In this document: positions 8,518-30,938 of the stretch, one piece after another
How the letters are laid out: each line of letters begins with the position of its first letter
Position numbering within the stretch: position 1 is the stretch's first letter
From: Candidatus Multivoradales bacterium
GTDB lineage: Bacteria; Acidobacteriota; Thermoanaerobaculia; Multivoradales; JAHEKO01
Direction of reading: 5' to 3'
Assembly: GCA_965223855.1 (NCBI GenBank)
Contig: CBDCXM010000008.1
Coordinates: forward strand, 707,528-771,527
Length of the DNA: 64,000 nucleotides
Notes under the pieces: model-generated
The model's input: the letters and a program-made list of their open reading frames with translations, nothing else
Told to the model about the DNA's origin: nothing
Database searches by the model: none
Made by a program: the position numbers and the translations under genes

Positions 8518-9015
8518 CTATTGAGGAGGCATCGCTGGACCGCAACGATAGGTTACCTGGCTGTAGTTGGCCCGCTGACACGAAACCTCCTGCCCTTCGG
8601 CATAGGCCTCCACACCCTCGCAGGTGATTGGAGATGCGTCGTTGGGGCAGTTGGCCCAAGCCTTGGCTGCCGGTTCAGAACCTCCGTCTGTCCACGTCAT
8701 CCATTGGTCGCTCCACCGTCTGCCGAAGCAAGCCGTCAACGTTGGTGCGTCAGCAAGATTCACGGAGTGACAGGGCTCGTCTGTAGGGTTGTCGACCATC
8801 CCGCCCTCCTCGTCGATGCCAGGGTTGTCGGGGCCGGTTCGCGGATGGCTCCGTGCTCCGGCGTGGGGCATCCAATGAGGGCATTCGTCGTCGAAAACGG
8901 GCTCGACTTGCGCTTCAAGACTCAACCCGCAGAGAAGGGCTGCTAGTAGCGCAAGCGCCGCGGCCCAGAGTAGCCGGTGTCGGCCGAGATCAGGTGAGTT
9001 GGCATCCTGCTTCAC
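8518..9015 (-). CDS. Small secreted Cys-rich hypothetical protein
   Basis: AAGGAG RBS before GTG; signal peptide LLWAAALALLAALLCGLSLEA; 7 Cys in the mature part. Confidence 0.75.
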   Translation of the reverse strand: MKQDANSPDLGRHRLLWAAALALLAALLCGLSLEAQVEPVFDDECPHWMPHAGARSHPRTGPDNPGIDEEGGMVDNPTDEPCHSVNLADAPTLTACFGRRWSDQWMTWTDGGSEPAAKAWANCPNDASPITCEGVEAYAEGQEVSCQRANYSQVTYRCGPAMPPQ

Positions 9016-9192: not shown

Positions 9193-9284
9193 GGAGCTGC
9201 GTCGAACGGCGCGCTCCGGGAGCCAGTCTGGGCGCTGAAAGCAGCCAAATCGCAGGCTCCGTGGTCCTGGCTGGCGCCCGCCTC
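9193..9284. repeat. Dispersed ~94-bp imperfect direct repeat, copy B
   Basis: Aligns with 1658-1751 at about 85% identity. Confidence 0.85.
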
Positions 9285-9402
9285 TTCGGCGCCCGGCGCG
9301 CGCTCAGACGTCGGGGATCGTCTGTCGCCGGACGCTCCCCAAGATCCTCCATGCGCCTGCGCTCCTCTTCCACTTGCCGGGAGCCTCTGGCGCTCGGCGT
9401 GA

Positions 9403-10431
9403 CTAGCGATGCGGATCGGTGGGGCCAGGGGAAGTTCTGTACTGAAGCGCTACGCTGACGAGAATCAAGCACAAAGCCAGGCCCGGAACCCACCAGGCGC
9501 CCCTCGAGACCAGAACAAGGACGACAATCATCAGCGCAGTCCCTCTAAGCAAGCTGCCAGGTCGTGCGCTCCGCAGGAAACTCATCAGGTCCGCCAGCCA
9601 CTTGAGAAGATCCCGACGGGCGATCAGTAGAACCACCGACATGACCGTCAACACCGCCGGCCTGCCCCAGGTGGAAGGCGGAGTCGGTAGATTGACCAGA
9701 GCGTGCGCAAAGATGACTGGGAGGAGAGTCTCTGTGCGCACGAACACATAGCCCGCGAAGAGTGAACCAAGGGCGAGGCTCGCCAACATGATGAGGCTCA
9801 GGGCCTCGAGGACAAGATACTGGCCGTGAGCAAGGGTGAAGAAGAGCGTGGAAAGGAGAACGGCCTCCGACTGGGCGAATCCGTCGGACAGACGGGTCAC
9901 GAGGTAGCCCCGAAAGTAGAGCTCTTCGACCACCGGGACGAGCAAGAAACTGCTCGCTGCCATGAAAGCGAGAAAGCCGAGCGACCAGCTGGTGGGGAAA
10001 AGGGCCCAATGGCCTGGCCCGCTTCCGAGGGCAGGATAGAAAGTGGCCAGCAACTGAACGGCGTTCGGCAGCCAGCCCATGGCGGCCCAGAGAACGAAGC
10101 CCAGAGCCAGACTCTGGCCAAAGGTTCGACCCCCGGAGCGCATGCCATAGCTCTGAATACGTCGGCGACGCAGCCAGTAGCCGAGAACGTAGAAGAGTGC
10201 GAGGGCAAGCCCGTACTTGAGCGCCTGTTCGATCGTTGCGAGTCGGGCGAGCTCCCAGAAGTCCGGGGTCCCAGATACCACCATCTCTGACTGGACGACC
10301 TTCCACTGCGGAACTCCCAAGCCTGCCTGCACGAACCTGCCGGCGAAGATGGCGACGATCAGGACGCCGACGACCTCCAGGATCGCTGCAAGCTCAGTTG
10401 TTCGGGACGAGGTCGATACCGTCAAAACCAC
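9403..10431 (-). CDS. CPBP (CAAX/Abi) family intramembrane glutamic endopeptidase
   Basis: Multi-TM protein with EELYFRG, FTLAH and HALVN, the EExxxR, FxxxH and HxxxN motifs. Confidence 0.9.
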   Translation of the reverse strand: MVLTVSTSSRTTELAAILEVVGVLIVAIFAGRFVQAGLGVPQWKVVQSEMVVSGTPDFWELARLATIEQALKYGLALALFYVLGYWLRRRRIQSYGMRSGGRTFGQSLALGFVLWAAMGWLPNAVQLLATFYPALGSGPGHWALFPTSWSLGFLAFMAASSFLLVPVVEELYFRGYLVTRLSDGFAQSEAVLLSTLFFTLAHGQYLVLEALSLIMLASLALGSLFAGYVFVRTETLLPVIFAHALVNLPTPPSTWGRPAVLTVMSVVLLIARRDLLKWLADLMSFLRSARPGSLLRGTALMIVVLVLVSRGAWWVPGLALCLILVSVALQYRTSPGPTDPHR

Positions 10432-10562
10432 AGCTCACAGGCAAATGCTGCGTACGTTTTCGGCTCCGCAGCCAAGGCGACATCCATTCTGGTTGAGGGA
10501 CCTGGACGAGGGACTCGCGACCGGCGAAGTCGTTGGCCAGCGGAGCTCAGCTGTCACCGTTC

Positions 10563-10620
10563 GGCAGCAAAACTCCGCCCCGCCCTTGCTGCCCTCAAGG
10601 GGCCGCTCGGACGGGGCGGA
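10563..10620 (-). terminator. Hairpin/terminator downstream of the small peptide gene
   Basis: Inverted repeat 10574-10585/10609-10620 (11 of 12 match) followed on the minus strand by GTTTT; overlapping alternative stem GGCAGCAA/TTGCTGCC at 10563-10570/10586-10593. Confidence 0.55.
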
Positions 10621-10676
10621 CAGGCCCATCTGTTCTTGGCAGGAAGATCGCTGATGAAGCTCTCTTCCTTGTGCTC

Positions 10677-10733
10677 TCACTCCAGGATCGGCATCAGCGA
10701 TTGACCTGCCTTGACCTTGGTCTTGACCTTCAA
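10677..10733 (-). CDS. Putative exported precursor peptide MKVKTKVKAGQSLMPILE (18 aa)
   Basis: AGGAGG (10741-10746) 7 nt before TTG start at 10733; TGA at 10677-10679; lies directly downstream of a C39-peptidase ABC exporter; Lys-rich leader ends in Ala-Gly. Confidence 0.8.
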   Translation of the reverse strand: MKVKTKVKAGQSLMPILE

Positions 10734-10908
10734 GCTGCCACCTCCTTCCTTCGTCTGCGGTTCGATTTCGGCTACCCCGGGAGAGTCGGGGCGTCAGCTT
10801 GTCCGGCAACCCTCCTGAAGGTCGCGCAGATTGCAGCCTACTTGCCTCACGCGAAAACCGATTTGCTTTCGCTTCGATCCGTAAGCTCGACGGCTGATCC
10901 GGCATCGA

Positions 10909-13011
10909 CTAGTGCGTCACGAGGACGAGCGCGCCGTCCACATTCTCCAAGGCGCTCAGAACAGTCTCGGCGGTTGCCGGATCGAGGCCCGAGAGACTCT
11001 CGTCGAGAACGAGAAGTCTCGGGCCCTGCAACAGACCCCTCGCAACAAAGACTCTCGATCTTTCGCCATGAGACAGACGCCACCCAGACTCGCCAACCAA
11101 CTGATGGATACCTGCGGGCATGCGATCCAACAAGTCCCCGAGGCCCAGACTTCTGCAGACACGCTCCGCCTGCCGCAGATCAAAGACCGATGCTGGCCAC
11201 CGCCCGCCGATCAGGAGGTTGTAGGCAAGGGATCCGGTCAGTAGGTGGTTCCTGTGGAACTGCGGCACAAGTGCCACGGTCCTGCGTCGAACCGCCGGCG
11301 GCATCGACCTGACCTCGAACCCGGAGGCTACGACGGTACCCTCCTCAGGAACGAGGTTCCCAGCGAGCGCTGAGACCAGGGTCGACTTTCCCGAGCCCGA
11401 TTCTCCGGACAGTAGGATGCGTTCGCCTTTCTCGATGACAATGGAGCAGTCTCTGAGCACTGCTCGCGATCCGAACCGATGTGAGATGCCGTGTGCTCTC
11501 AGCACCGGCCTTTCCTGACTCTCGCTCAACCTCGACAGGTGTGGCCGGGCCTCCGACCTTGCGAATCCCGAGGCGATCGACTGCCACGAGGCAGCAGCCC
11601 TGGACAGGTCTTCGACCCCGCGAACCAACTTCCACAGTGCCCGGTAGACGAACAGAATTCCACCCACCGTAGCGGCGATGACAAGGCCGTCGCGATTGGC
11701 TCCATAATCGGCGACCGACAGTAGAAGTGCCAAGGCCAGCCAGGCTCGCGGAATGACTGACTTGAGCCGCACTTCGGACCTATCGAGACGGTCAGTCTTT
11801 CGGGTCAGTCTCGCCAGCCGATGGTCCTCTTCGAGATGATGGCAAGACTCGTCTTCTTGAACTCTTCGCGTCGTCGACCCGACCACCTTCTCCACAGCGT
11901 CCTTTGCAACAAGGGCATGACTCCTCGTCCACTCCAACCTCGTCTTGAAGGCCTCTCGACCGCTCAAGACGACCGAACACACCGCCACACCAAGAAGAAA
12001 AAGGTGGAGACCTGGCGTGAGGCCGAAGGCGAGGAGCCCCGCTCCCAACGCCACCTCGAGCAGAGCGATGAGACCGATGTGGGCGCCGCCAAGGGCGTAT
12101 GTCTCGAGAGACTCCGCCTCGAACAAGGCACCTAGAGCGCGGCCGAGGCCCATCGACTCCTTCGCGTCCTCAGGCTCTGAGAGAGCAGAGTCCAGCAGAC
12201 GCTGTCTCACCACGCGCCCCACTGTCACCGTGGCAGTGGCCAGCAGCGAAACTTCGGCAGCCCGGAATGGCGTCACGCTGCCGAGGAGTAGAGCCCAGAG
12301 CACCACCCACGCCGGCGATGAACGGTCCGCAAGGACAACTCCGGCAAGAATCCACCAGGAAGAGAGCAACAGAACATGCTGGAGAAGGTGCGCCGACAGC
12401 AACTTGCTCACGGTTCCGACAAAACCAGCCGCCTTGAGTTTCTGCCAAGGCGATGCAGAGCTGACAGTGCCTACAGACCAGACCCCAGCGCTCCCCCGAG
12501 GTAACTCACTCCAGGAGGCGTAGCTCATTCGCACCCGGTCGCGGCCCTTCTTCGACAGGCCACTTCTCTCCAGGACTCCAAGCAAAGTGGCCAGTCCCTG
12601 TGCCGACCTCTCAGGCAGCAGCTCCGAGATCACCTCCGCGATGTCCATCCAGCGCCGCTCGCCGGTGGGAGTCACTGCGAGGAATCGATGTCGCCTTCGC
12701 TCAACCACCAGCAGGAAGGACAGCTCACCATCAGTCTCGCAAACGAGAAGAGCCGGGTGTTCCCCAGGTTCGGGTAGGTCTTCCGCGGAAGCTATTAGCC
12801 AGTGCTTGCCGGTCGTGAGACCGAGGTCTCGCAGTTGGCTCTCGAGCCACTCGCCCACCTCGGCCATGGAGACGGGGCCACTCTCGAGCGCCGGTCCCTC
12901 AGACTCCCAACCGGCGAGAAAGACCGCTAGCGCCTCCTTGAGTCGGCTTGCCGGCCATTTCTGGCTCAAGGGCCGTCCAGACGACCCTCTCGGATCTCCA
13001 AGTGTCGCCAC
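10909..13011 (-). CDS. ABC transporter TMD-NBD subunit with degenerate N-terminal domain
   Basis: TM helices; Walker A GESGSGKST; non-canonical signature LSHGE; Walker B LLVLDE; ends at the H-loop VTH*. Confidence 0.9.
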   Translation of the reverse strand: MATLGDPRGSSGRPLSQKWPASRLKEALAVFLAGWESEGPALESGPVSMAEVGEWLESQLRDLGLTTGKHWLIASAEDLPEPGEHPALLVCETDGELSFLLVVERRRHRFLAVTPTGERRWMDIAEVISELLPERSAQGLATLLGVLERSGLSKKGRDRVRMSYASWSELPRGSAGVWSVGTVSSASPWQKLKAAGFVGTVSKLLSAHLLQHVLLLSSWWILAGVVLADRSSPAWVVLWALLLGSVTPFRAAEVSLLATATVTVGRVVRQRLLDSALSEPEDAKESMGLGRALGALFEAESLETYALGGAHIGLIALLEVALGAGLLAFGLTPGLHLFLLGVAVCSVVLSGREAFKTRLEWTRSHALVAKDAVEKVVGSTTRRVQEDESCHHLEEDHRLARLTRKTDRLDRSEVRLKSVIPRAWLALALLLSVADYGANRDGLVIAATVGGILFVYRALWKLVRGVEDLSRAAASWQSIASGFARSEARPHLSRLSESQERPVLRAHGISHRFGSRAVLRDCSIVIEKGERILLSGESGSGKSTLVSALAGNLVPEEGTVVASGFEVRSMPPAVRRRTVALVPQFHRNHLLTGSLAYNLLIGGRWPASVFDLRQAERVCRSLGLGDLLDRMPAGIHQLVGESGWRLSHGERSRVFVARGLLQGPRLLVLDESLSGLDPATAETVLSALENVDGALVLVTH

Positions 13012-15554
13012 GCTCCGCCACGACCGAGGTTCCCTCGCGCGACGTCACGAGAAGGGGCAGCTTCCAACCTGTCGATGACGCCCGCCCGCGTGATGGCACC
13101 GTGCTCGAGAAGAACGAACCGGTCGAACAGCTTCGCCTCTTCCCTGTCGTGAGTTACGCATACGATCGTGGCTGCTCGCCATGCCTCGAGGCAAGCGCGC
13201 AGGAGTTCGTTTCGCCTTCGAAGGTCAAGACCTCGGAAGGCCTCGTCGAACAGAACGAGATCAGGCCTGGGGTGCAGGAGGCCGCGACCGAGCCGTAGCC
13301 GCTGCCCCTCTCCCCCGGAGAGCCACTCGCCTCGCTCGCCCGCTCGCCTCTCCAGTCCTCCGCCACGACCTGCAACCGAGTCCAACAAGTCGGCGGTGCA
13401 CAGTGCTCGAACGAGGCCGACACCAGCCTGAGCGAATCCGTATCGCAAGTTGCGCAGCAGGCTCTGATCCCAGATCTCCACGTCAGGCGCAACCCAAACC
13501 GTTCTGTGGTGGCTCGACTCGTCCGGAGAAGGCGGTCGGCCGTCGATCCTCACTCTTCCGCCGGTGGGTTGACTCAGTCCCAGCAGAATCCTGATCAAGC
13601 TTGACTTGCCGGCACCCGAAGGTCCCAGAAGCGCGACGTGCTCACCGGGAGCAACATCGAGGCTGACACCCCTCAGCACGTCAACCCCACCGAGAGTCAG
13701 CTCTACTGAGTCGAGTTCGATCGTGGGAGCCCCTTGCTTGGGCCTGCGCGAATCAGTCCGGCTCCTGGCGGGCTCCCTCTGCCCAAGAAGCTCGAGTATG
13801 CGATGCGCTTGAAGTTCCAACGAGGGATAGTCACCGGACAGGATCACACCGAGGATGTGTCCGTGCATGAAGATGGACAAACCCCAGTAGGCGAGGAGCA
13901 GCGCCTGGCTGGACGCACCTCGGGCTGAGAGGTGAGTAACAACGAGAGCCATGATGCATCCGAGTACGACGACGTGCATCGTGGTCTCCAACAGCGACAC
14001 TGCCGCTGTCTTCTGGCGAACCCGCTCTCCCCAGCGTCGAAGAGCTCTCTCATGCTCCCCTCGCACGGTAGCGCTCGCCCCATGTGCCTCGATCGCATGG
14101 CGACCGACAAGAGCGTCGAAGTAGATCCGCGCAAGGCTCTGTCTGGATGACTGCACCCGCCGTTCACGGTCCCGGACGCGCGGCAACGCGAGCACGGGCA
14201 AGCCGAGTCCCGCCACCACTGCGCCAGTAACCGCGGCCAGCCCCCCCGGCTCGATCATGGCCACTCCGAAGGCCGCCACCACAAGTTCGATGCTCGAGCG
14301 GAGACCAGCGTCGAAGAACATCGGCACCCCCCGAAGGCGGAAGAGGGTTGCGAATCGCTCGGAAAGGTCGGAGGGAAGGCGCGTGCTGAAGAACTCGGGC
14401 TGGAGACGTGGAAGCTGCCGGAACAAGGCCAACCTGAGGCGAACCTCGAACTCCGTGGCCCAGCTCAGCAACGCCTTCGCCTGGTGATACTCCAGGAGTC
14501 CGACGACACACAAGAAGGCGCTGAGCATCCCGGCGAAGAAGGCTCGGGCGCCCGGACTCTCGAGGGGGAGGTCGATGAGACTGCGGAAGAGCAGCGGCTC
14601 CAAGGCTGCGCAAACGGCGAGCAGGCAGGCGCCGGAAGCCGCCAGCCATGGCCAACGACACCCCTCAACTGAATGCTGAAAGAGCTCAGACCAGACCGAG
14701 GGGCGATGGTGAGAATCAGCCCGGGGATGCGTGCCGGCGGTTCGTGCGTCAAGGGGGTGACCGGTCAGCCCTCGGGGAGCGACGTGGAGCACAACGGCTC
14801 CTCTCAGTACCAGGTCATCGGGAGACGCCGCCGGCCTGACCTGGAAGAGTTCCGGGGGCACGGCCTGGGGGCAAGCTCGCTCCTTCATGAACTCCTCGAA
14901 GAGGCGCGAAGCCCTCCACCCAGGAGGCAGTACTCCGTCTGACCGAAGCCTCTCGATCAGGCGTAGGACCGCCTCGACCTCGGCGGCCTCTCGCCAATCT
15001 CTCTGCCGGACCTCGGTCCATCTCGCTTCGAAGGCTCGCCAAGGCACACCAAGCTCCTCGCACCGAGTCCTCAGCGGATCAAGAAAATCCTCGGAGCCCA
15101 CCCAGTCGAGCCAATCCCTGATCAAAACCTCTTGAGAGTGGACATAGAGTTCGTCTCTCAAGGTCCGAGCAGTCGTCCAGCGTCTTCCCCAGGCAGGATC
15201 CATGACCTGAAATCGCCCTAGGTGACATCTCCACAGAACCACGAAGTGAGTTGCCTCGTCCGGTGTCCTGGTCACTACGATGCAGGGCAGGAAGAGATCC
15301 GGCCGCGCCAAGAGGTGCTCGATGGGCACGACCCTCTGCTCTGCGCGGAAACCGAGCGAGGTCAGGAGGTCCTCGAGCATGTCGATCGAGGTACCGTCGA
15401 GCCCCACCCCTGAACGCGCTCTGAGTTCCTCGTAGTTGGCCGACAGACCGAATCCCCTGACCAACGCCTGCAAGGCGGCAGGGCCACAGTCCATCGCTGA
15501 GGCCTGGAGTACCGTCGGAACGATCAGCCTGCGCCGGTCACGAACTCTAGCCAA
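12966..15554 (-). CDS. Peptidase-containing ABC transporter (C39 peptidase-TMD-NBD)
   Basis: LQASAMDCGPAAL (Gln, Cys), HFVV (His), VMDPA (Asp) triad intact; GPSGAGKSS, LSGGE, LVLFDE, CVTH. Confidence 0.95.
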   Translation of the reverse strand: MARVRDRRRLIVPTVLQASAMDCGPAALQALVRGFGLSANYEELRARSGVGLDGTSIDMLEDLLTSLGFRAEQRVVPIEHLLARPDLFLPCIVVTRTPDEATHFVVLWRCHLGRFQVMDPAWGRRWTTARTLRDELYVHSQEVLIRDWLDWVGSEDFLDPLRTRCEELGVPWRAFEARWTEVRQRDWREAAEVEAVLRLIERLRSDGVLPPGWRASRLFEEFMKERACPQAVPPELFQVRPAASPDDLVLRGAVVLHVAPRGLTGHPLDARTAGTHPRADSHHRPSVWSELFQHSVEGCRWPWLAASGACLLAVCAALEPLLFRSLIDLPLESPGARAFFAGMLSAFLCVVGLLEYHQAKALLSWATEFEVRLRLALFRQLPRLQPEFFSTRLPSDLSERFATLFRLRGVPMFFDAGLRSSIELVVAAFGVAMIEPGGLAAVTGAVVAGLGLPVLALPRVRDRERRVQSSRQSLARIYFDALVGRHAIEAHGASATVRGEHERALRRWGERVRQKTAAVSLLETTMHVVVLGCIMALVVTHLSARGASSQALLLAYWGLSIFMHGHILGVILSGDYPSLELQAHRILELLGQREPARSRTDSRRPKQGAPTIELDSVELTLGGVDVLRGVSLDVAPGEHVALLGPSGAGKSSLIRILLGLSQPTGGRVRIDGRPPSPDESSHHRTVWVAPDVEIWDQSLLRNLRYGFAQAGVGLVRALCTADLLDSVAGRGGGLERRAGERGEWLSGGEGQRLRLGRGLLHPRPDLVLFDEAFRGLDLRRRNELLRACLEAWRAATIVCVTHDREEAKLFDRFVLLEHGAITRAGVIDRLEAAPSRDVARGNLGRGGAWRHLEIREGRLDGP

Positions 15555-16689
15555 GAGCCGCTCTAGCCTTTTCGACCTGCCGTATTGCGACCTGAAGAGG
15601 AGTCACTCGATCTACCTCGATGTCCACCAGACACGGCAGGCCCGCCTCCAACGGAGCGTCTCCATCATCCAGCAAACGAAGTACCACCTGAACGAGTCCC
15701 TCTACTTCCTCGCTACCGACACTCGCCACCTCGGCCGGCATTCTGCGGCGTCCGTTCACAGCATGCTCCAGCCGAACTACGGCCGGCTGACCAGCTCTGA
15801 CACGACCTACCGCTCCAGGCGGGGCCAACCTCGCTCGCACGACCAGCGGGCCTTCGGGAAGCAAGCTCGCCAGTCGCTCACCCTTCGAGACGAGTCCACC
15901 GACCTCGGTCTCCGTGACACTCGCCACGACACCGGAGCGAGGAGACCGCACTCTCAGGTCCCGGACCGTGCGCTCCGCCAGAGACACGGCTTCCTCAGCC
16001 GCCTGCAAGGCGGCCTCCAGGACGACCATCTCCGACTCGATCTGCTCGAGTGCGGAAGCTTCATCCAGAGCGATCCGCTCTCCAGACCGAGTTCCTCCTG
16101 TCAGGACCTCCCTCGCAGCCGCCAGGGCACTCTTCCTCGTGACGACCTCGCTGCGAAGCGCATCGACTACCGCAGCGCTCACGATCCCCTCCTCGTGGAG
16201 GCCCTGTTCCCGATCGAGCTCTGCCTCGGCACGCCTCAGAGCCTCGGCCGACGTGTCTCTCGCAGCAGCCAACTGGCGCAACAGTGCAGCCTGCTCGGCC
16301 GCGCTCACCGACAGTCTCGCGACGGCCAGGGCGCGGGCCCGGTCTCGCTGGCGCAGCTCGGCCCTTACCGACGTGAGCGTGGCACGTGCCTGAGCAAGGA
16401 TCAGGTCCTGCGACGGGCTCTCCAGAACGGCGACCAGCTCGCCCGGACCTAGCCGGTCGCCCGGAGCCACCTCGAGGCTGGAAAGAGCGCTCTCCATTCG
16501 GGCCGAGATCTGCAGAAAGCCAACCTCGGACTCGACACGCGCAACCTCCGAAGTTACATAGACAGGCACGGAAGCCACCGCAAACCAGACCAACCAGCCC
16601 AAGATCAGACTCGAGGGCACGATCACGTTGCTGGCTCGCCTGCGACACAGATCCACCAGGACCGCAAGAGTTCTCGGAAAAACCGCCAT
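15547..16689 (-). CDS. HlyD-family membrane fusion protein
   Basis: Single N-terminal TM, lipoyl half-motifs (VAPGDRL; VRSPRSGVV..GGLVSKGE), long coiled coil; overlaps the start of the C39 transporter. Confidence 0.9.
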   Translation of the reverse strand: MAVFPRTLAVLVDLCRRRASNVIVPSSLILGWLVWFAVASVPVYVTSEVARVESEVGFLQISARMESALSSLEVAPGDRLGPGELVAVLESPSQDLILAQARATLTSVRAELRQRDRARALAVARLSVSAAEQAALLRQLAAARDTSAEALRRAEAELDREQGLHEEGIVSAAVVDALRSEVVTRKSALAAAREVLTGGTRSGERIALDEASALEQIESEMVVLEAALQAAEEAVSLAERTVRDLRVRSPRSGVVASVTETEVGGLVSKGERLASLLPEGPLVVRARLAPPGAVGRVRAGQPAVVRLEHAVNGRRRMPAEVASVGSEEVEGLVQVVLRLLDDGDAPLEAGLPCLVDIEVDRVTPLQVAIRQVEKARAALG

Positions 16690-17139
16690 GAGGGTCCGAC
16701 CGCTGCTCAACTTGCTCACTGTCTCAAGGTCAGGTTCAAACCAAGGAGTTCGAAGACCCCGCCAGGTCACAAGGCCGAGAAGCGACCCTCACCGCCAGGC
16801 GCTACTTATCTGGCTCACTCGGCTTCCTGCCGCTCCACTCCGCTAGGGTCTCGAATCGTCGGCGACGCAGATCCCAATCGGCCCAGCATGCATCTCATCT
16901 GGCGCAGCATGGAACTCAACCAACGGCAGCCGCGCGTTCTCGATAGGAGGAACGCGTCTTTCGGTGAAGATCAAGCTCACACCACGGCAACGACCGAGGC
17001 CGGCCACAGCAGGCCGTACGGTGTTGGCCACAAGCAGGCTCATACTCAGAAGGTATGAACTCATACTTTTCAAGGTCTTGGCGTATCGACCTGGTGCGCC
17101 TACACTGCCCTTCCCCCGATCGACCTGCGTCGGCTCAAG

Positions 17140-17751
17140 ATGACTGCTCAAGCCTCTTCAAATCAATCCACCGTCAACACGGAGTCGGAAGGCACCGTCA
17201 CCCTCCTCCTTGGCGCCTGGTCGCGAAGAGAGCCGGGAGCGCTCGACGATCTGTTCTCACACGTGTTCTCCCGCCTGCAGCGCATAGCGACCGGGCATCT
17301 AAGAAACGAAGGTCTGGGCCAAGGAATGGAGGCTCGAGACCTCGTGAACGAGTCGTACCTCAAGGTCGTCCGCCAAGGCCCGGTCGCTTGGCGCAACCGA
17401 GCCCACTTCTACACCATCGTCTCGATGATCATGCGGAGAATTCTGGTGGACCACGCGCGGAAGCGCCACGCAGAGAAGCGGGGAGGAGGCTGGCAGCGGG
17501 TACCACTCGATCAGGCCTGCCAAGCTCTCGAGGGCGACAGGGCCAGCCTTGTCGACATCGATCGGGCTCTGAAGAAGCTCTCGGTCACGGACCCCGAACT
17601 AGCGCGCGTGGTCAATCTCAGGGTCTTTGGTGGCTTTTCTGTCGAAGAGACAGCGAAGATCCTTGGCTGCTCCCGAGCCACACTCGGGAGGAGGTGGCGT
17701 CTCGCAAAGGACAGCCTGGCAGATGCACTCGGAAGAAGACAGACCGACTGA
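17140..17751 (+). CDS. ECF sigma factor of the kinase-associated (TIGR02999/ECF43-like) type
   Basis: VTLLLGAW..., WRNRAHFY..., MRRILVDHARKRHAEKRGG, VVNLRVFGGFSVEETA; overlaps a downstream Ser/Thr kinase. Confidence 0.9.
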   Translation: MTAQASSNQSTVNTESEGTVTLLLGAWSRREPGALDDLFSHVFSRLQRIATGHLRNEGLGQGMEARDLVNESYLKVVRQGPVAWRNRAHFYTIVSMIMRRILVDHARKRHAEKRGGGWQRVPLDQACQALEGDRASLVDIDRALKKLSVTDPELARVVNLRVFGGFSVEETAKILGCSRATLGRRWRLAKDSLADALGRRQTD

Positions 17752-18739
17752 TCTGGCTCTCGAATCAGTTCTCGACAGTCTACTCAGATGCCCCGCCAAC
17801 GAGCGGGAAGCGGAGCTTCAGGCCTGCAACCTGGGAGCTGGCGGACAGGACTATCTCCGACTCCTGACGACCTCGTCCGAGGTCGCAATGCAACGCGTCT
17901 CTGCGCAGTTGTCTCCTCGCTCGGTCCCAGCAGAAGTAGCCGGCTACGCCATCGGCCGAAGACTGGGTGGTGGCGGCCTGGCGACCGTCTATGAGGCCGA
18001 GGCGCCGGGGAAGCTTCCGAGGGTCGTGGCAGTCAAGGTCATGAGGCCTTCGCTCCCGTCACACCTGGCCGAGCGGTTGCTCCGCCATGAGGCATTCGTC
18101 CTCCGCCATCTTGCACATCGATCGATACCTCGCTTCTACGGCCGGGAGAAATCCGGACAAGGCTCATGCTCGCTGCTGATGCAACACATCGACGGCACGC
18201 CACTGCTCGAGGTCTGCAGGAGTCAAACCCCGTCCCTTGATCAACGGATTGGCCTGGTGCGGCAGCTTTGCGATGTTGTTCAGCACGTCCACGATGCCGG
18301 TTTCGTTCACTGCGACGTCAAACCCGAGAACATTCTGATCTCAGAGGCGGGTCGCCCCTATCTGGTCGATTTCGGGTCAGCACGCAAGACACGTCAGAGC
18401 CCAGCACTCCCTGTCACCGCGACACCTGGCTACGCATCTCCGGAACTTCTTCGGCACCAGCCGGTAGGACCCCAAGCCGACGTGTACGGCCTGGGCTCTC
18501 TACTTCACAGTCTGTGCTTTCCCCTAGCTCTCGACCGTCCCGCCTGCTTGCTGCGTAGCCAAGATGGGGATCGGGATCCGGACAACCAAAAGATCTCTCT
18601 AGTCACTGAGCTCTCTCGCATTGTTCGCCGGACCCTGCGACTCCGGCCGGAGGATCGGTACTCCAGCGCCGCCGAACTGGCTGAGGACTTGGACGAACTC
18701 GAGAGGCTAGGATGTCCCGCGAGTTCAGGCACTCGGTAG
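17723..18739 (+). CDS. Hanks-type Ser/Thr protein kinase, soluble, no C-terminal sensor
   Basis: GGGGLATVY, VAVK, HCDVKPENIL, DFG, TPGYASPE, DVYGLG; ends just after the catalytic domain. Confidence 0.9.
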   Translation: MHSEEDRPTDLALESVLDSLLRCPANEREAELQACNLGAGGQDYLRLLTTSSEVAMQRVSAQLSPRSVPAEVAGYAIGRRLGGGGLATVYEAEAPGKLPRVVAVKVMRPSLPSHLAERLLRHEAFVLRHLAHRSIPRFYGREKSGQGSCSLLMQHIDGTPLLEVCRSQTPSLDQRIGLVRQLCDVVQHVHDAGFVHCDVKPENILISEAGRPYLVDFGSARKTRQSPALPVTATPGYASPELLRHQPVGPQADVYGLGSLLHSLCFPLALDRPACLLRSQDGDRDPDNQKISLVTELSRIVRRTLRLRPEDRYSSAAELAEDLDELERLGCPASSGTR

Positions 18740-19612
18740 GCCGCGCTCTACCACCTCGGCAAATCTCATTGCGGCCATCGTTGCATCGGGTCGCCGTAGA
18801 AGAAACGTCCTACCGATTGGGGGATCACGGGCGATCTGGGCGAACCGGGCTCCAGGACACGCCACAGTAGAGAACGAGGTCGGCACGAAAGTAACGCCAA
18901 ATCCCGCAGCAACCAACGGAACCATGCTCAGCCAGCTCTGAGCCTCCTGCACAATGCGAGGGGAGAAACCATGAGTACGGCAGCTCCCGATCAACAGATC
19001 GTACTCGCCAGGTGAGGCGTGACGAGGGAACATCACGAACGGCTCGTCGGCCAGTCCTTTCCACCTAACGGTCGACTTCGCCAGTGGATGCGCATCAGGT
19101 AGTACGCACACGTACTCCTCCCGTGCCACTTCCCTCAGTACCAGTTCGTCCAACCTGCCGGAAGGTTGACGCAGGAAGCCGATGTCGGCTGAGCCGGAAG
19201 TCACTTCGTCCAGCACAGAACTCGACTGGACATCGTGAAGAACGACCTCGACCTCGGGAAAAGCCGCCCGAAAGCTCGCGACCGAAGCAGGCAGGGAAGT
19301 CAACATGAATGAAGGCGACATCGCGACGACGACCACTCCCGACTCACCAGCAGCCGCCGACCGGACACTCTTGATGGCCCCATCGAACCTCGAGACGACA
19401 TCGCGCGCCAGTGGCAGCAGCAAACGTCCGCAGCTCGTCAGAGCCACCTTCGGTCGGCGTTCGAGCAGGACACAGTCCAAAGCCTCTTCGAGACTCCGTA
19501 TCTGTTGGCTTAGCGGGGGCTGCTGTATTCCGATTCGCTCTGCAGCGCGCCCGAAATGGGCCTCCTCCGCGACGGCAATGAAGTAGCGAAGGTGGCGCAA
19601 CTCGATCCTCAT
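18725..19612 (-). CDS. LysR-family transcriptional regulator
   Basis: ELRHLRYFIAVAEEAHFGRAAERIGIQQPPLSQQIRSLE HTH plus substrate-binding domain. Confidence 0.95.
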   Translation of the reverse strand: MRIELRHLRYFIAVAEEAHFGRAAERIGIQQPPLSQQIRSLEEALDCVLLERRPKVALTSCGRLLLPLARDVVSRFDGAIKSVRSAAAGESGVVVVAMSPSFMLTSLPASVASFRAAFPEVEVVLHDVQSSSVLDEVTSGSADIGFLRQPSGRLDELVLREVAREEYVCVLPDAHPLAKSTVRWKGLADEPFVMFPRHASPGEYDLLIGSCRTHGFSPRIVQEAQSWLSMVPLVAAGFGVTFVPTSFSTVACPGARFAQIARDPPIGRTFLLRRPDATMAAMRFAEVVERGLPSA

Positions 19613-19850
19613 GACCAAAGCCTAGCAGCCGAGTGCCGGGGCCACAGATCCTCCGGTGCCTGCCCGGCAGGCCCGATCTCAGCTCGTGGTCGGTGGACCG
19701 CCAAGGAGGGTCGGCAACAACCCAAGGCAGTTGCTCGGAGCAAGGAGGACGTCGCGAAGATTCGAGTTCTCCGTGATCGAACGGAGGGCCCGAGAGTCAT
19801 CATCACGACGCGAGCGCGAGCGCTGTCGGCGCCGCCGCAGACCCCTCCCT

Positions 19851-30035: not shown

Positions 30036-30938
30036 ATGGGACGAAAGCTACGGTACCTGCCCTCAGAAGCCCTCGTAGAAGTCACCTGCCGCGTGATCCA
30101 GCGGCGCTTCCTCCTGCGCCCGTCTCCGGTGCTCAACGAGATCATCCTCGGTACTCTGGCCCGTGGCCAGAGGCGTTACGGAATGAGGGTGTGCGGGTTC
30201 GTCTACCTGTCGAACCACTGCCATCTACTGCTCTATCCAACCGATGCCAAACAGCTCGCCGACTTCATGCGCTATGTCAACTCGAAGATCGCCCGCGAAG
30301 TCGGGCGGCTCCATGACTGGAGAGAGAAGGTCTGGGGCCGGCGCTACGTGGACATCGAGGTCTCCGAGGAGCCCGAGGCACAGATCCGTCGCCTTCGCTA
30401 CCTGCTCAGTCAAGGGGTCAAGGAAGGCCTCGTCGCGTCGCCGAGGCACTGGCCAGGGGCGTCGTCCACGAAGGCACTGCTTCAAGGCGAGGAGCTCGAA
30501 GGTGTTTGGATCGACCGCACGATGCAGTTCAAGGCCTACGAGCGAGGTGAGCCCAATCCGGATGCACTCTTCACCTCCAGCGAACGCATCGAGCTCTCGC
30601 CATTACCCTGCTGGGAGCACGAACCTGAGAACCACTGGCGCTCGGAAGTCCGGCGGATGGTGAGAGAGATCGAGGAAGAAGCTCCCGAGGACATCTTGGG
30701 GAAACAAGCGATCCTCGCCCAGCACCCTCACGATCGCCCGACTTCACCCGAGAACCGCACGCCTGCCCCCCGGTTCCATGCGATCGAGGGAAGTGTGCGC
30801 CGGGCGCTCGAGGCCGGCTATGCCCTCGTGGTCCTCGCCTACCGGCAGGCGGCAGAGGACCTCAAGCGAGGCAGGGTCGCCGACTTCCCCACAGGGTGCT
30901 TCAGGCCGGGGCTCGGCTTCGTGCCGCTCAGGACGTAG
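30036..30938 (+). CDS. RAYT/IS200-like Y1 HUH transposase
   Basis: AGGAGG RBS; VTCR..RRFLLRP; YLSNHCHLLL (HUH); WGRRY; LRYL...VKEGLV..P..WPG. Confidence 0.9.
   Translation: MGRKLRYLPSEALVEVTCRVIQRRFLLRPSPVLNEIILGTLARGQRRYGMRVCGFVYLSNHCHLLLYPTDAKQLADFMRYVNSKIAREVGRLHDWREKVWGRRYVDIEVSEEPEAQIRRLRYLLSQGVKEGLVASPRHWPGASSTKALLQGEELEGVWIDRTMQFKAYERGEPNPDALFTSSERIELSPLPCWEHEPENHWRSEVRRMVREIEEEAPEDILGKQAILAQHPHDRPTSPENRTPAPRFHAIEGSVRRALEAGYALVVLAYRQAAEDLKRGRVADFPTGCFRPGLGFVPLRT

Follow-up and report, generated by a model that had tools for sequence, protein, structure and literature searches.

A stretch of 64,000 nt from the genome of a Candidatus Multivoradales bacterium, referred to below as the window, encodes between positions 9403 and 18739 a peptide exporter of three proteins, an 18-codon micro-peptide and an intramembrane protease of the CPBP family on the minus strand, and a sigma factor of the extracytoplasmic function (ECF) class with a Hanks-type Ser/Thr kinase on the plus strand. 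We read this locus as one arm of a two-locus circuit of secreted micro-peptides under sigma/kinase control, in which the likely receptor is a kinase with tetratricopeptide repeats (TPR) encoded at a second locus, L001, 23 kb upstream; the probability of this reading is put at roughly 0.55. The function of the circuit would be communication or signalling. Throughout, G000 denotes the genome holding the window, the other G-numbers are genomes of the same order, g-numbers are genera, f1 is a family and L-numbers are peptide loci. Counts over the 300 genomes of the order and the 21 relatives include one unpublished genome (G005), entered as free of leader, exporter orthologue and motif, the sequence of which was not used.

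Seven genes had been proposed here in an earlier note made from the sequence alone, and all of them were recovered in their places by open reading frame (ORF) calls and by Pfam and NCBIfam searches. In window coordinates, the locus is composed as follows.

9403-10431, minus strand: CPBP/Rce1-like glutamic-type intramembrane protease of 342 aa, recognised by PF02517 and its motifs.
10677-10733, minus strand: 18-codon precursor gene for MKVKTKVKAG-QSLMPILE (MKVKTKVKAGQSLMPILE), with the start codon TTG at 10733 and the stop codon TGA at 10677-10679.
10741-10746, minus strand: Shine-Dalgarno sequence AGGAGG, 7 nt before the TTG start.
10847-10879, minus strand: GATCG-N20-TCGCGTGA, a weak candidate for a promoter-like element in the region upstream of the peptide gene.
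10909-13011, minus strand: second ATP-binding cassette (ABC) half-transporter of 700 aa; its N-terminal domain is C39-like but without the catalytic residues.
12966-15554, minus strand: peptidase-containing C39-ABC transporter of 862 aa, in the order C39 domain, transmembrane part, ATPase part.
15547-16770, minus strand: HlyD-family periplasmic adaptor of 407 aa, with one N-terminal membrane helix by hydropathy.
16911-16938, plus strand: candidate promoter-like site of the ECF type, GGAAC-N17-CGCGTT, located between the divergent HlyD and sigma genes some 200 nt ahead of the latter.
17140-17751, plus strand: ECF sigma factor of the TIGR02999/PF07638 type, 203 aa.
17627-18739, plus strand: Hanks-type Ser/Thr kinase, 370 aa from a TTG start or 338 aa from the in-frame ATG at 17723.

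The HlyD and C39-ABC genes overlap by 8 nt and the two ABC genes by 46 nt; the overlap of the sigma and kinase genes measures 125 nt, shrinking to 29 nt if the kinase starts at the ATG. Counted from the GTG at 16770, the HlyD and sigma genes are 369 nt apart; with the ATG chosen in the earlier note the distance is about 450 nt. The micro-ORF, which reads TTG AAG GTC ... GAG TGA, sits inside the 475-nt gap between the second ABC gene and the CPBP gene; the two longer ORFs that overlap this gap (10435-10905 on the minus strand and 10533-11312 on the plus strand) matched no Pfam family.

The micro-peptide belongs to a family of short precursors with a common basic leader. A scan of the whole G000 genome revealed six such genes of 16 to 18 codons, each with a start codon directly before a leader of the form K/R-x-K/R-T-x-hydrophobic-x-A/V-G; four further matches to the position-specific scoring matrix above threshold had no start codon and were discarded. 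Five of the six genes lie in L001, on the same contig and 23 kb upstream of the window gene, and encode MKVKTNVKAG-QSTAHILE, KARTQVVVG-ANPWFE, KVRTNLVAG-GNPWFE, MRVRTNLPAG-ESTVAILG and KARTNVVAG-ASPWLE. The window gene differs from its closest paralogue by synonymous substitutions within the leader and the terminal I-L-E and by replacements between the two. With a degenerate DNA pattern for M-K-x-K/R-T-x-x-K-A-G, 47 sites were found in 32 of the 300 genomes of the order (16 of 89 genera), and the reversed pattern used as control gave none. These results bear out the proposal that the micro-ORF is a real peptide gene, and they support its reading as a precursor of the exported type. In a collection with one genome per species this pattern had at least 131 matching stretches, spread over six phyla; among the matches listed, the six groups are Acidobacteriota, Myxococcota, Chloroflexota, Planctomycetota, Verrucomicrobiota and Gammaproteobacteria, and the acidobacterial carriers belong to Blastocatellia, Terriglobia, Bryobacteraceae, Pyrinomonadaceae and Thermoanaerobaculia. 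By record title, the carriers include the cultured organisms Nannocystis radixulma (L096) and Methyloglobulus morosus KoM1 (L117). A few isolated matches in archaea and Firmicutes are probably due to chance. The Thermoanaerobaculia loci L131/L132, L137 and L143 have the same peptides and gene order as loci L065, L054 and L062 of the order itself.

The set of loci assembled from these searches comprises 121 sequences, 105 of them unique, and 102 of the latter contain a total of 247 catalogued peptides (none in the reversed-sequence control). A sequence resembling a Shine-Dalgarno site occurs within 16 nt of the start codon in 214 of the 247. The tails have a median length of 9 residues (quartiles 7 and 13), are of 12 residues or fewer in 173 peptides, and in many are of 5-8. 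The residue that follows K-A-G is glycine in 73 peptides and otherwise highly variable, which suggests cleavage right after K-A-G. Several classes of tail recur across genera and families (VLI[GSA]D, xxxTGAD, TPLPA, xxLWG[SA], QSxxxILE, and a class with tryptophan plus an acidic residue), and tandem copies are common. The class of the window peptide is also present in sister genera, where QSTTGILE, QSTAGILE and QSVGAILE correspond to QSLMPILE and QSTAHILE of G000. Ten members of at least 20 aa matched no Pfam or NCBIfam family at the curated level; below threshold only SurA (14.9 bits) and DUF7324 (16.5 bits) appeared, both at chance level. Literature searches for the leader strings, for double-glycine leaders or peptidase-containing ABC transporters (PCATs) in Acidobacteria and for peptide quorum sensing in Acidobacteria returned nothing on this family, most subscription journals lying outside their coverage.

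Two variations of the precursor were observed. In seven loci from Blastocatellia, Bryobacteraceae, Verrucomicrobiota and others (L091, L109, L115, L141, L145, L120 and L138) longer precursors have two to five copies of the leader-like unit L-K-V-K-T-x-V-K-A-G, and the short cores between the copies contain N-H-N-Q-T; these look like multi-core precursors. In the Chloroflexota loci L150, L157, L088 and L105 the same leader is joined to tails of 22-46 residues, which in L150 and L157 are Cys-rich and bacteriocin-like, so the route formed by leader and exporter carries more than one kind of cargo.

The exporter trio is the main partner of the peptide family. Full-length C39-ABC orthologues (E at most 1e-60) were found in 65 of the 300 genomes of the order, comprising 26 of the 32 with the leader and 39 of the 268 without it (Fisher p = 1.8e-14, in a test that treats related genomes as independent and with a strict leader pattern that misses diverged leaders). 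In an all-against-all clustering of the ORFs of the 105 unique loci, the ABC cluster was present in 53 loci and the HlyD cluster in 40; seven further clusters (37, 35, 21, 18, 18, 12 and 8 loci) are shadow ORFs opposite exporter genes, as seen from the coordinates of their representatives. No leader-type peptide was found in the searched parts of two genomes of the order, G010 (L011) and G017 (L013).

The C39-ABC protein of the window has the properties of a PCAT: it matches Peptidase_C39 (PF03412) at 66.2 bits against a cut-off of 22, ABC_membrane at 30.6 bits and ABC_tran at 76.8 bits, its peptidase cysteine and histidine lie in AMDCGPA and ATHFVV, and the transmembrane and ATPase parts are in the same chain. 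The cysteine motif DCGPA is present in 12 of 12 orthologues. The adaptor matches HlyD_3 (45.1 bits; cut-off 22.2). The second ABC protein matches ABC_tran, and its N-terminal 200 residues (14 sequences) align to the C39 domains (12 sequences) with an hhalign probability of 93.7% (E 1.8e-7). This alignment covers only the C-terminal half of C39, leaving the cysteine segment unaligned and placing serine at the position of the histidine; the domain probably binds without cutting. The exporter stays below the curated thresholds of every named exporter family scored. For the NHLP trio the values are 42.4 against 156.2 bits (TIGR03794), 156.6 against 853.3 (TIGR03796) and 107.2 against 709.4 (TIGR03797), and for the ComA/BlpA type (TIGR01193) the C39-ABC protein reaches 80 of 523.85 bits. 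The absence of a TolC-type gene from the window, remarked on previously, extends to its whole contig; both genes of the OEP family in the genome are on contig C9.

The sigma factor of the window matches TIGR02999 at 181.8 bits (cut-off 126.15) and PF07638 at 155.3 bits (21.1). The kinase matches Pkinase at 117.3 bits (31.7) and has intact VAVK, HCD and DFG motifs. As in the ECF43 group, a Hanks kinase gene adjoins the sigma gene, here with an overlap, and no anti-sigma domain is encoded by the locus ORFs scanned. At the second locus, the five peptide genes of L001 flank genes for a Hanks kinase of 1001 aa and another PF07638 sigma factor. The domain order of this kinase, with a kinase domain, a single membrane helix (near residue 370, by hydropathy) and roughly 600 residues of TPR, points to a receptor kinase with a periplasmic TPR domain and is shared with PknS of Xanthomonas citri (PMC13147305; published work is cited here from those portions of the articles that were available). 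PknS phosphorylates the ECF43 sigma factor EcfK (PMC13147305). In sigma factors of this phosphorylation-dependent group, a threonine motif (STTA or QTTA) in region 2.2 replaces an acidic motif of the DAED type (PMC8999054, PMC13147305), and the L001 sigma factor resembles them in reading A-P-T-A at the phosphorylation site (PMC8999054). The kinase of the window is 31% identical to the L001 receptor kinase. The LysR-family regulator gene at 18725-19618 on the minus strand is convergent to the window kinase gene and ends 15 nt inside its 3' end; this overlap may mark the spot where the kinase lost a former sensor part.

Association of these regulators with the peptide loci exceeds chance. G000 encodes nine strong PF07638 sigma factors in 4.5 Mb, and two of the nine adjoin its only two peptide loci; these two form a sister pair, with 48.7% identity and, in a FastTree phylogeny, a local support of 96%. 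Within the searched flanks, a sigma gene was present at 8 of the 39 leader loci of the order (the window, L001, L053, L055, L058, L059, L060 and L069). The link at L055 was rejected as probably fortuitous: the sigma gene there is at a distance of 8 kb, and its genome contains about 38 of them. At the other seven loci the distance is about 0.3-6.4 kb in genomes with 2-9 strong sigma genes, for which the chance of finding one within 3.5 kb is about 0.4-1.4% per locus. Among the 105 unique loci the sigma cluster occurs in 12, including L084, L103, L106 and L138 from Terriglobia and other Acidobacteriota. Searches led by the motif described below added sigma/kinase-linked loci in genera g7, g27 and g76 and in a further genome of g84. 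The proposed co-occurrence of exporter and peptide with a TIGR02999 sigma factor and a Hanks kinase is therefore upheld, for two loci of G000 and across at least seven of the order's genera. The Acidobacteriaceae-type loci L111, L121 and L154 combine peptides of 13-16 codons with the leader KTKTNVKAG, the exporter trio and a Hanks kinase with an FHA-GAF-sigma54 activator, a cluster present in five of the 105 loci; by gene content, this is the same peptide/exporter module with a different transcriptional output.

Relatives of the window organism carry a promoter-like motif specific to the module. It is 29 nt long, has the form GATCR-N16-YCGCGTTA (consensus GATCAsTTTCGnnnnnGnTTCyCGCGTTA), and lies 20-75 nt before the start codons of the peptides. 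Five whole genomes contain six matches, each of them at a peptide or an exporter locus, and none to the reversed control. Across the 300 genomes of the order, a loose form of the pattern matched 100 times and its reversed form 16 times, so part of the 100 are due to chance; matches to the full consensus lie before family peptides or before the exporter operon. The motif precedes peptides in G009, G110, G111, G106, G109, G108, G120, G215, G216, G219 and G240, and the exporter operon in G010, G097 and G098. In family f1 the genera with the motif are exactly those with the exporter (g6, g7, g22, g23 and g27). Several gene orders were observed. In G110 and G111 the motif and peptide are followed by the sigma and kinase genes; in G215, G216, G219 and G240 the sigma gene and a kinase-TPR gene precede the motif and peptide; in G120 a peptide gene is found ahead of a row of sigma, kinase, HlyD, C39-ABC and ABC genes; and in G109 the motif is followed by MTTKTHLKAGQSTAGILE and the exporter trio in the same order. 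In G097, G098 and G010 the order is sigma, kinase, motif, an ORF of about 60 codons (ending AILE in G097 and G098 and AVLE in G010), HlyD, C39-ABC and ABC. Since ECF sigma factors usually autoregulate (PMC7826278), the operons of G110 and G111 suggest that the motif is the sigma factor's own promoter. A regulatory link that the earlier note could base on adjacency only thus has a second line of evidence in the relatives, where a module-specific motif stands beside the sigma and kinase genes; this part does not extend to G000, which lacks the motif.

In some relatives, longer ORFs lie between the motif and HlyD. At L211 (G010), L230/L247 (G098), L253 (G097) and L246, L252 and L254 (g22) they have 46-63 codons, no K-A-G leader, and end in AILE, AVLE or AFFE, of which the first two match the tails of the QSxxxILE class; the one in G010 has 62 codons, ends in AVLE, and follows the motif with no leader-type peptide. 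At L249 (G202) the motif is located after the sigma and kinase genes and before a gene for a secreted Cys-rich protein with a Sec-type signal, with no micro-peptide.

G000 has a candidate motif of its own. Both peptide clusters of L001 are preceded by GAGTC[AC]-N14-GCCGCGT. Loosened to GAGTC[AC]-N13-15-YCGCGT, this pattern has nine matches in G000, three of them within 8 kb at L001; since two of these went into its definition, independent support comes from the remaining site alone (roughly p = 0.03). The third site, GAGTCA-N14-TCGCGT at L001:17797-17823, precedes an ORF (L001:17931-19076, plus strand) whose product of 381 aa carries a signal peptide and matches no Pfam family; this secreted protein may belong to the same regulon.

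Taken together, the data are consistent with the following scheme. The 18-residue product would consist of the 10-residue basic leader M-K-V-K-T-x-V-K-A-G and the 8-residue tail QSLMPILE. Cleavage after K-A-G most likely falls to the C39 domain of the first ABC protein, and the tail, of 5-9 residues in the family, would be exported by the C39-ABC protein together with the second ABC protein, which has the inactive C39-like domain, and HlyD, the path probably being completed by an unlinked TolC-type channel. The adjacent ECF sigma factor would drive the peptide genes and, in relatives, also the exporter operon, its activity being set by the partner Hanks kinase; this transcriptional step is drawn from the conserved synteny, the module-specific motif of the relatives and the published ECF43 mechanism. 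The transmembrane kinase of L001 is the likely receptor, through its periplasmic TPR domain. If the exported tails bind this domain, they would act as a self-inducing cell-to-cell signal. The two loci look complementary in this respect, as L001 contains a receptor kinase, a threonine-type sigma factor and five peptides with no exporter, and the window locus an exporter, one peptide, a kinase without a sensor and a sigma factor of the acidic type.

A number of observations weigh against this scheme. The product and its cleavage are predictions from sequence, and the binding of the tails is a hypothesis. The kinase of the window has no hydrophobic segment, membrane helix or sensor domain by hydropathy, and its sigma factor reads E-A-R-D in region 2.2, with two acidic residues and no threonine, so it may need no phosphorylation there. 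The motif of the relatives is absent from G000, where the best composite weight-matrix score is below 20 bits (self scores 30-44). The look-alike in the peptide gap (10879-10847) is weak and has a spacer 4 nt longer, and the site in the sigma gap, also weak, is one of 11 matches to GGAAC-N16-18-CGCGT[TG] in G000 and therefore proves little alone. Of the sigma/kinase wiring proposed for the window, the pairing recurs elsewhere; the coupling itself is weaker than proposed, given the kinase without a sensor, the E-A-R-D sigma factor and the missing motif. Both G000 sigma factors fall outside a loose clade of the other peptide-linked sigma factors in the FastTree phylogeny. No nearby sigma gene was found at 31 of the 39 leader loci of the order and no clustered one at 93 of the 105 unique loci, which makes the sigma/kinase pair a frequent option rather than an obligatory part; some family loci adjoin histidine kinases or FHA-sigma54 activators instead. 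As to the peptides, the invariance of K-A-G is partly built into the search patterns, and a minority of members have long Cys-rich tails resembling bacteriocins. The leader is also not of the double-glycine type, which ends in GG, GA or GS: in the window K-A-G is followed by Q, and only the 73 of 247 members with K-A-G-G can be read as GG. Substrates of ComA and LahT have hydrophobic residues at leader positions -4, -7 and -12 on an amphipathic helix (PMC10885120). With a cut after K-A-G, position -7 is K or R and a 10-residue leader has no position -12; at position -4 all 247 members have V, I, L or M, a result that the search pattern partly forces.

The intramembrane protease and the absence of tailoring enzymes bear on what the peptide is for. 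The CPBP protein matches PF02517 (Rce1-like) at 63.9 bits (cut-off 22.4) and contains the family motifs EELYFR, FTLAH and HALVN; all NCBIfam CPBP models remained below their cut-offs for it. The earlier note counted it among the parts of the candidate circuit; a place in the conserved module is not supported, as tblastn detected no homologue in 134 other locus sequences (40 + 80 + 14, some overlapping). It is thus a local add-on of the window locus, an immunity or trimming protease rather than a core part. Known roles of the family include bacteriocin immunity and the trimming of the AgrD pheromone precursor by MroQ. Apart from exporter, sigma and kinase proteins, no protein cluster occurs in more than 12 of the 105 unique loci, and the 12-locus cluster is a histidine kinase/response regulator. 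Pfam scans of selected ORFs detected no radical SAM, YcaO or LanM domain. The view that the locus lacks an enzyme for tailoring ribosomally made, post-translationally modified peptides (RiPPs) thus stands: none is conserved across the 105 loci, and none was seen in the part of the window covered by the eight locus ORFs and 19 ORFs between 60 and 30938. Such a result fits unmodified peptides and is no proof of them. Histidine kinases and response regulators of the ComDE/BlpRH type are absent from the eight locus ORFs, and are carried by some distant family loci.

The main rival to the signalling circuit is a bacteriocin- or microcin-like weapon locus, in which the peptide is an antimicrobial cargo of a leader/PCAT export route of general use, CPBP provides self-immunity and the sigma/kinase pair is a switch used under competition or envelope stress. 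CPBP/Abi proteins are generally known as bacteriocin immunity factors, and the CPBP gene follows the peptide gene on the same strand with no predicted terminator between them; however, it is absent from all other loci searched, where the recurrent partner is a receptor-type kinase and not an immunity gene. L012, L150 and L157 have basic or Cys-rich tails of 25-58 residues, but 173 of the 247 tails do not exceed 12 residues and many have 5-8, which is little for an antimicrobial peptide without modification. Bacteriocin loci likewise have tandem arrays in which the tails are hypervariable, although here the classes VLIxD, xxxTGAD, QSxxxILE and xxLWGS are conserved across genera and families with no free diversification. 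On balance we consider a weapon locus unlikely, though it deserves to be taken seriously. A role as precursors of RiPPs or other non-signalling products, with tailoring enzymes encoded elsewhere and with exporter and sigma/kinase pair serving production only, appears improbable. A conserved leader with a hypervariable core is a hallmark of RiPPs, three-gene PCAT exporters of the NHLP/Nif11 type serve them (as the names of TIGR03794, TIGR03796 and TIGR03797 indicate; PMC10885120), and L091, L109, L115, L141 and L145 encode multi-core precursors with repeated leader-like units. Against this stand the Pfam scans, with no radical SAM, YcaO or LanM domain in the ORFs selected, and the clustering, in which nothing other than exporter genes, shadow ORFs, kinases and sigma factors exceeds the 12 loci of the histidine kinase/response regulator.

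The remaining alternatives concern single parts of the circuit. The sigma/kinase pair of the window could be a decayed or independent duplicate that merely adjoins the exporter and peptide. Such uncoupling would fit the sensor-less kinase, the end of which overlaps the end of the opposite LysR gene, the sigma factor without the threonine motif, the divergent rather than co-directional position of sigma and exporter, and the lack of a strong promoter motif shared by the sigma and peptide gaps. The pairing is found again at L001 and in at least seven genera, though, the two G000 sigma factors are sister paralogues, and in G010, G097, G098 and G120 the sigma, kinase and exporter genes are co-directional neighbours; we therefore regard uncoupling as rather unlikely. 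Finally, the micro-ORFs, which are unannotated and only 14-19 codons long, might be cis-regulatory upstream ORFs or chance ORFs that make no functional peptide. This is highly improbable in view of their conservation at the amino-acid level with synonymous changes, the strong Shine-Dalgarno-like sequence in 214 of 247, the absence of matches in both reversed controls, the tandem arrays and orphan copies that each have their own promoter-like motif, and the tight association with a leader-cleaving exporter.

The circuit proposed here shares traits with several known systems. As in ComC/ComAB/ComDE and BlpC/BlpAB/BlpRH, a small precursor is combined with a C39-ABC transporter and an accessory protein for the removal of the leader, a step that is predicted in the present case, and as in the double-glycine pheromones of streptococci and lactobacilli the peptide genes adjoin regulatory genes and have conserved leaders with variable mature parts (PMC10885120, PMC7595303). 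Unlike ComAB and BlpAB, the exporter operates in a diderm host, with an HlyD adaptor and two different ABC proteins, one of which has an inactive C39-like domain. The leader differs from double-glycine leaders in its 10 residues, its richness in lysine, its A-G end and the absence of hydrophobic residues at -7 and -12, and the mature part has about 5-9 residues. In place of ComDE or BlpRH the regulator is an ECF sigma factor with a Hanks kinase, and there is no histidine kinase/response regulator. The arrangement of a PF07638/TIGR02999 sigma gene beside a Hanks kinase gene without an anti-sigma gene is that of EcfP-PknT in Vibrio parahaemolyticus and EcfK-PknS in X. citri. Their known regulons concern polymyxin resistance and the type VI secretion system, and the available portions of the sources report no peptide or exporter partner such as the one found here; the window also differs from EcfP and EcfK in the E-A-R-D at the phosphorylation site and in the lack of a sensor on its kinase.

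With the NHLP/Nif11 exporters, which gave the best-ranking specific NCBIfam names, the trio has in common an adaptor, a peptidase-ABC protein and a second ABC protein without active peptidase in a diderm cell; it differs in scores far below the cut-offs and in a leader of 10 residues instead of more than 70 (PMC10885120). HetC of Nostoc, compared by description only, is another diderm peptidase-ABC exporter and acts in developmental peptide signalling (PMC10986499). HetC and PatS, likewise compared by description, are restricted to cyanobacteria, have a different leader family and have no known sigma/kinase partner. Within the literature and database searches made, neither the peptide family nor its connection to an ECF sigma factor and a Hanks kinase appears to have been described. 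PatS itself is a precursor of 13-17 residues for a pentapeptide signal.

Cell-to-cell signalling by peptides is textbook knowledge for Gram-positive bacteria. To our knowledge it has hardly been documented for diderm soil phyla such as Acidobacteriota, the social behaviour of which is largely unknown. Routine annotation passes over peptide genes as short as these, so that the family is invisible in current genome records despite its occurrence in at least six phyla. Tentatively, the micro-peptides with the K-A-G leader may represent a widespread and undescribed class of diderm pheromones, in which a TPR Hanks kinase acts through an ECF sigma factor, or through an FHA-sigma54 activator in Acidobacteriaceae, and the sigma factor reads the peptide and exporter genes from a promoter of their own; the class would span Acidobacteriota, Myxococcota, Chloroflexota, Planctomycetota and others. 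If so, quorum sensing would proceed via Ser/Thr phosphorylation of a sigma factor. The module offers a testable set of parts, namely peptides of 5-9 residues, an exporter predicted to cleave them from their leaders, a receptor kinase with periplasmic TPR, a sigma factor and a 29-nt promoter-like motif. It also offers candidate ligands for kinase/sigma pairs of the ECF43 type, as those of the pairs studied have not been identified according to the portions of the reports available (PMC13147305, PMC8999054).

Both peptide loci of G000 are located in a stretch of about 60 kb with low G+C content (0.62-0.64 against 0.68 for the genome) at about 670-730 kb of contig C8. The third-position G+C content of the window genes is 0.66-0.74 up to 22.3 kb and 0.83-0.90 beyond 22.7 kb. 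Neither exporter nor leader was found in the four genomes of the same genus, suggesting that the module or the whole island was probably acquired horizontally. An IS200-like transposase ORF is present at 30036-30938.

Searches for other elements in and around the locus gave little. The whole window had no Rfam match at the gathering thresholds, and a scan of 9200-19000 for sigma-70 promoters and terminators was at background level (one promoter against 1.0 expected; nine terminators against 6.9). Sequencing runs listed as containing the sequence were four DNA runs, all from a single study, and no RNA run. Downstream of CPBP, an ORF of 165 aa (8518-9015, minus strand) has an N-terminal hydrophobic signal-like segment and several cysteines and belongs to no Pfam or NCBIfam family. 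At L001 a beta-lactamase-family gene (PF00144; L001:7336-9018, plus strand) is convergent to the peptide cluster and has homologues in 5 of the 105 unique loci, a recurrence that may be due to chance. Two plus-strand peptide genes of L001 are followed by genes for a beta-propeller protein with weak similarity to SGL/gluconolactonase (L001:14648-15976, plus strand) and an alpha/beta hydrolase (L001:16072-17736, plus strand).

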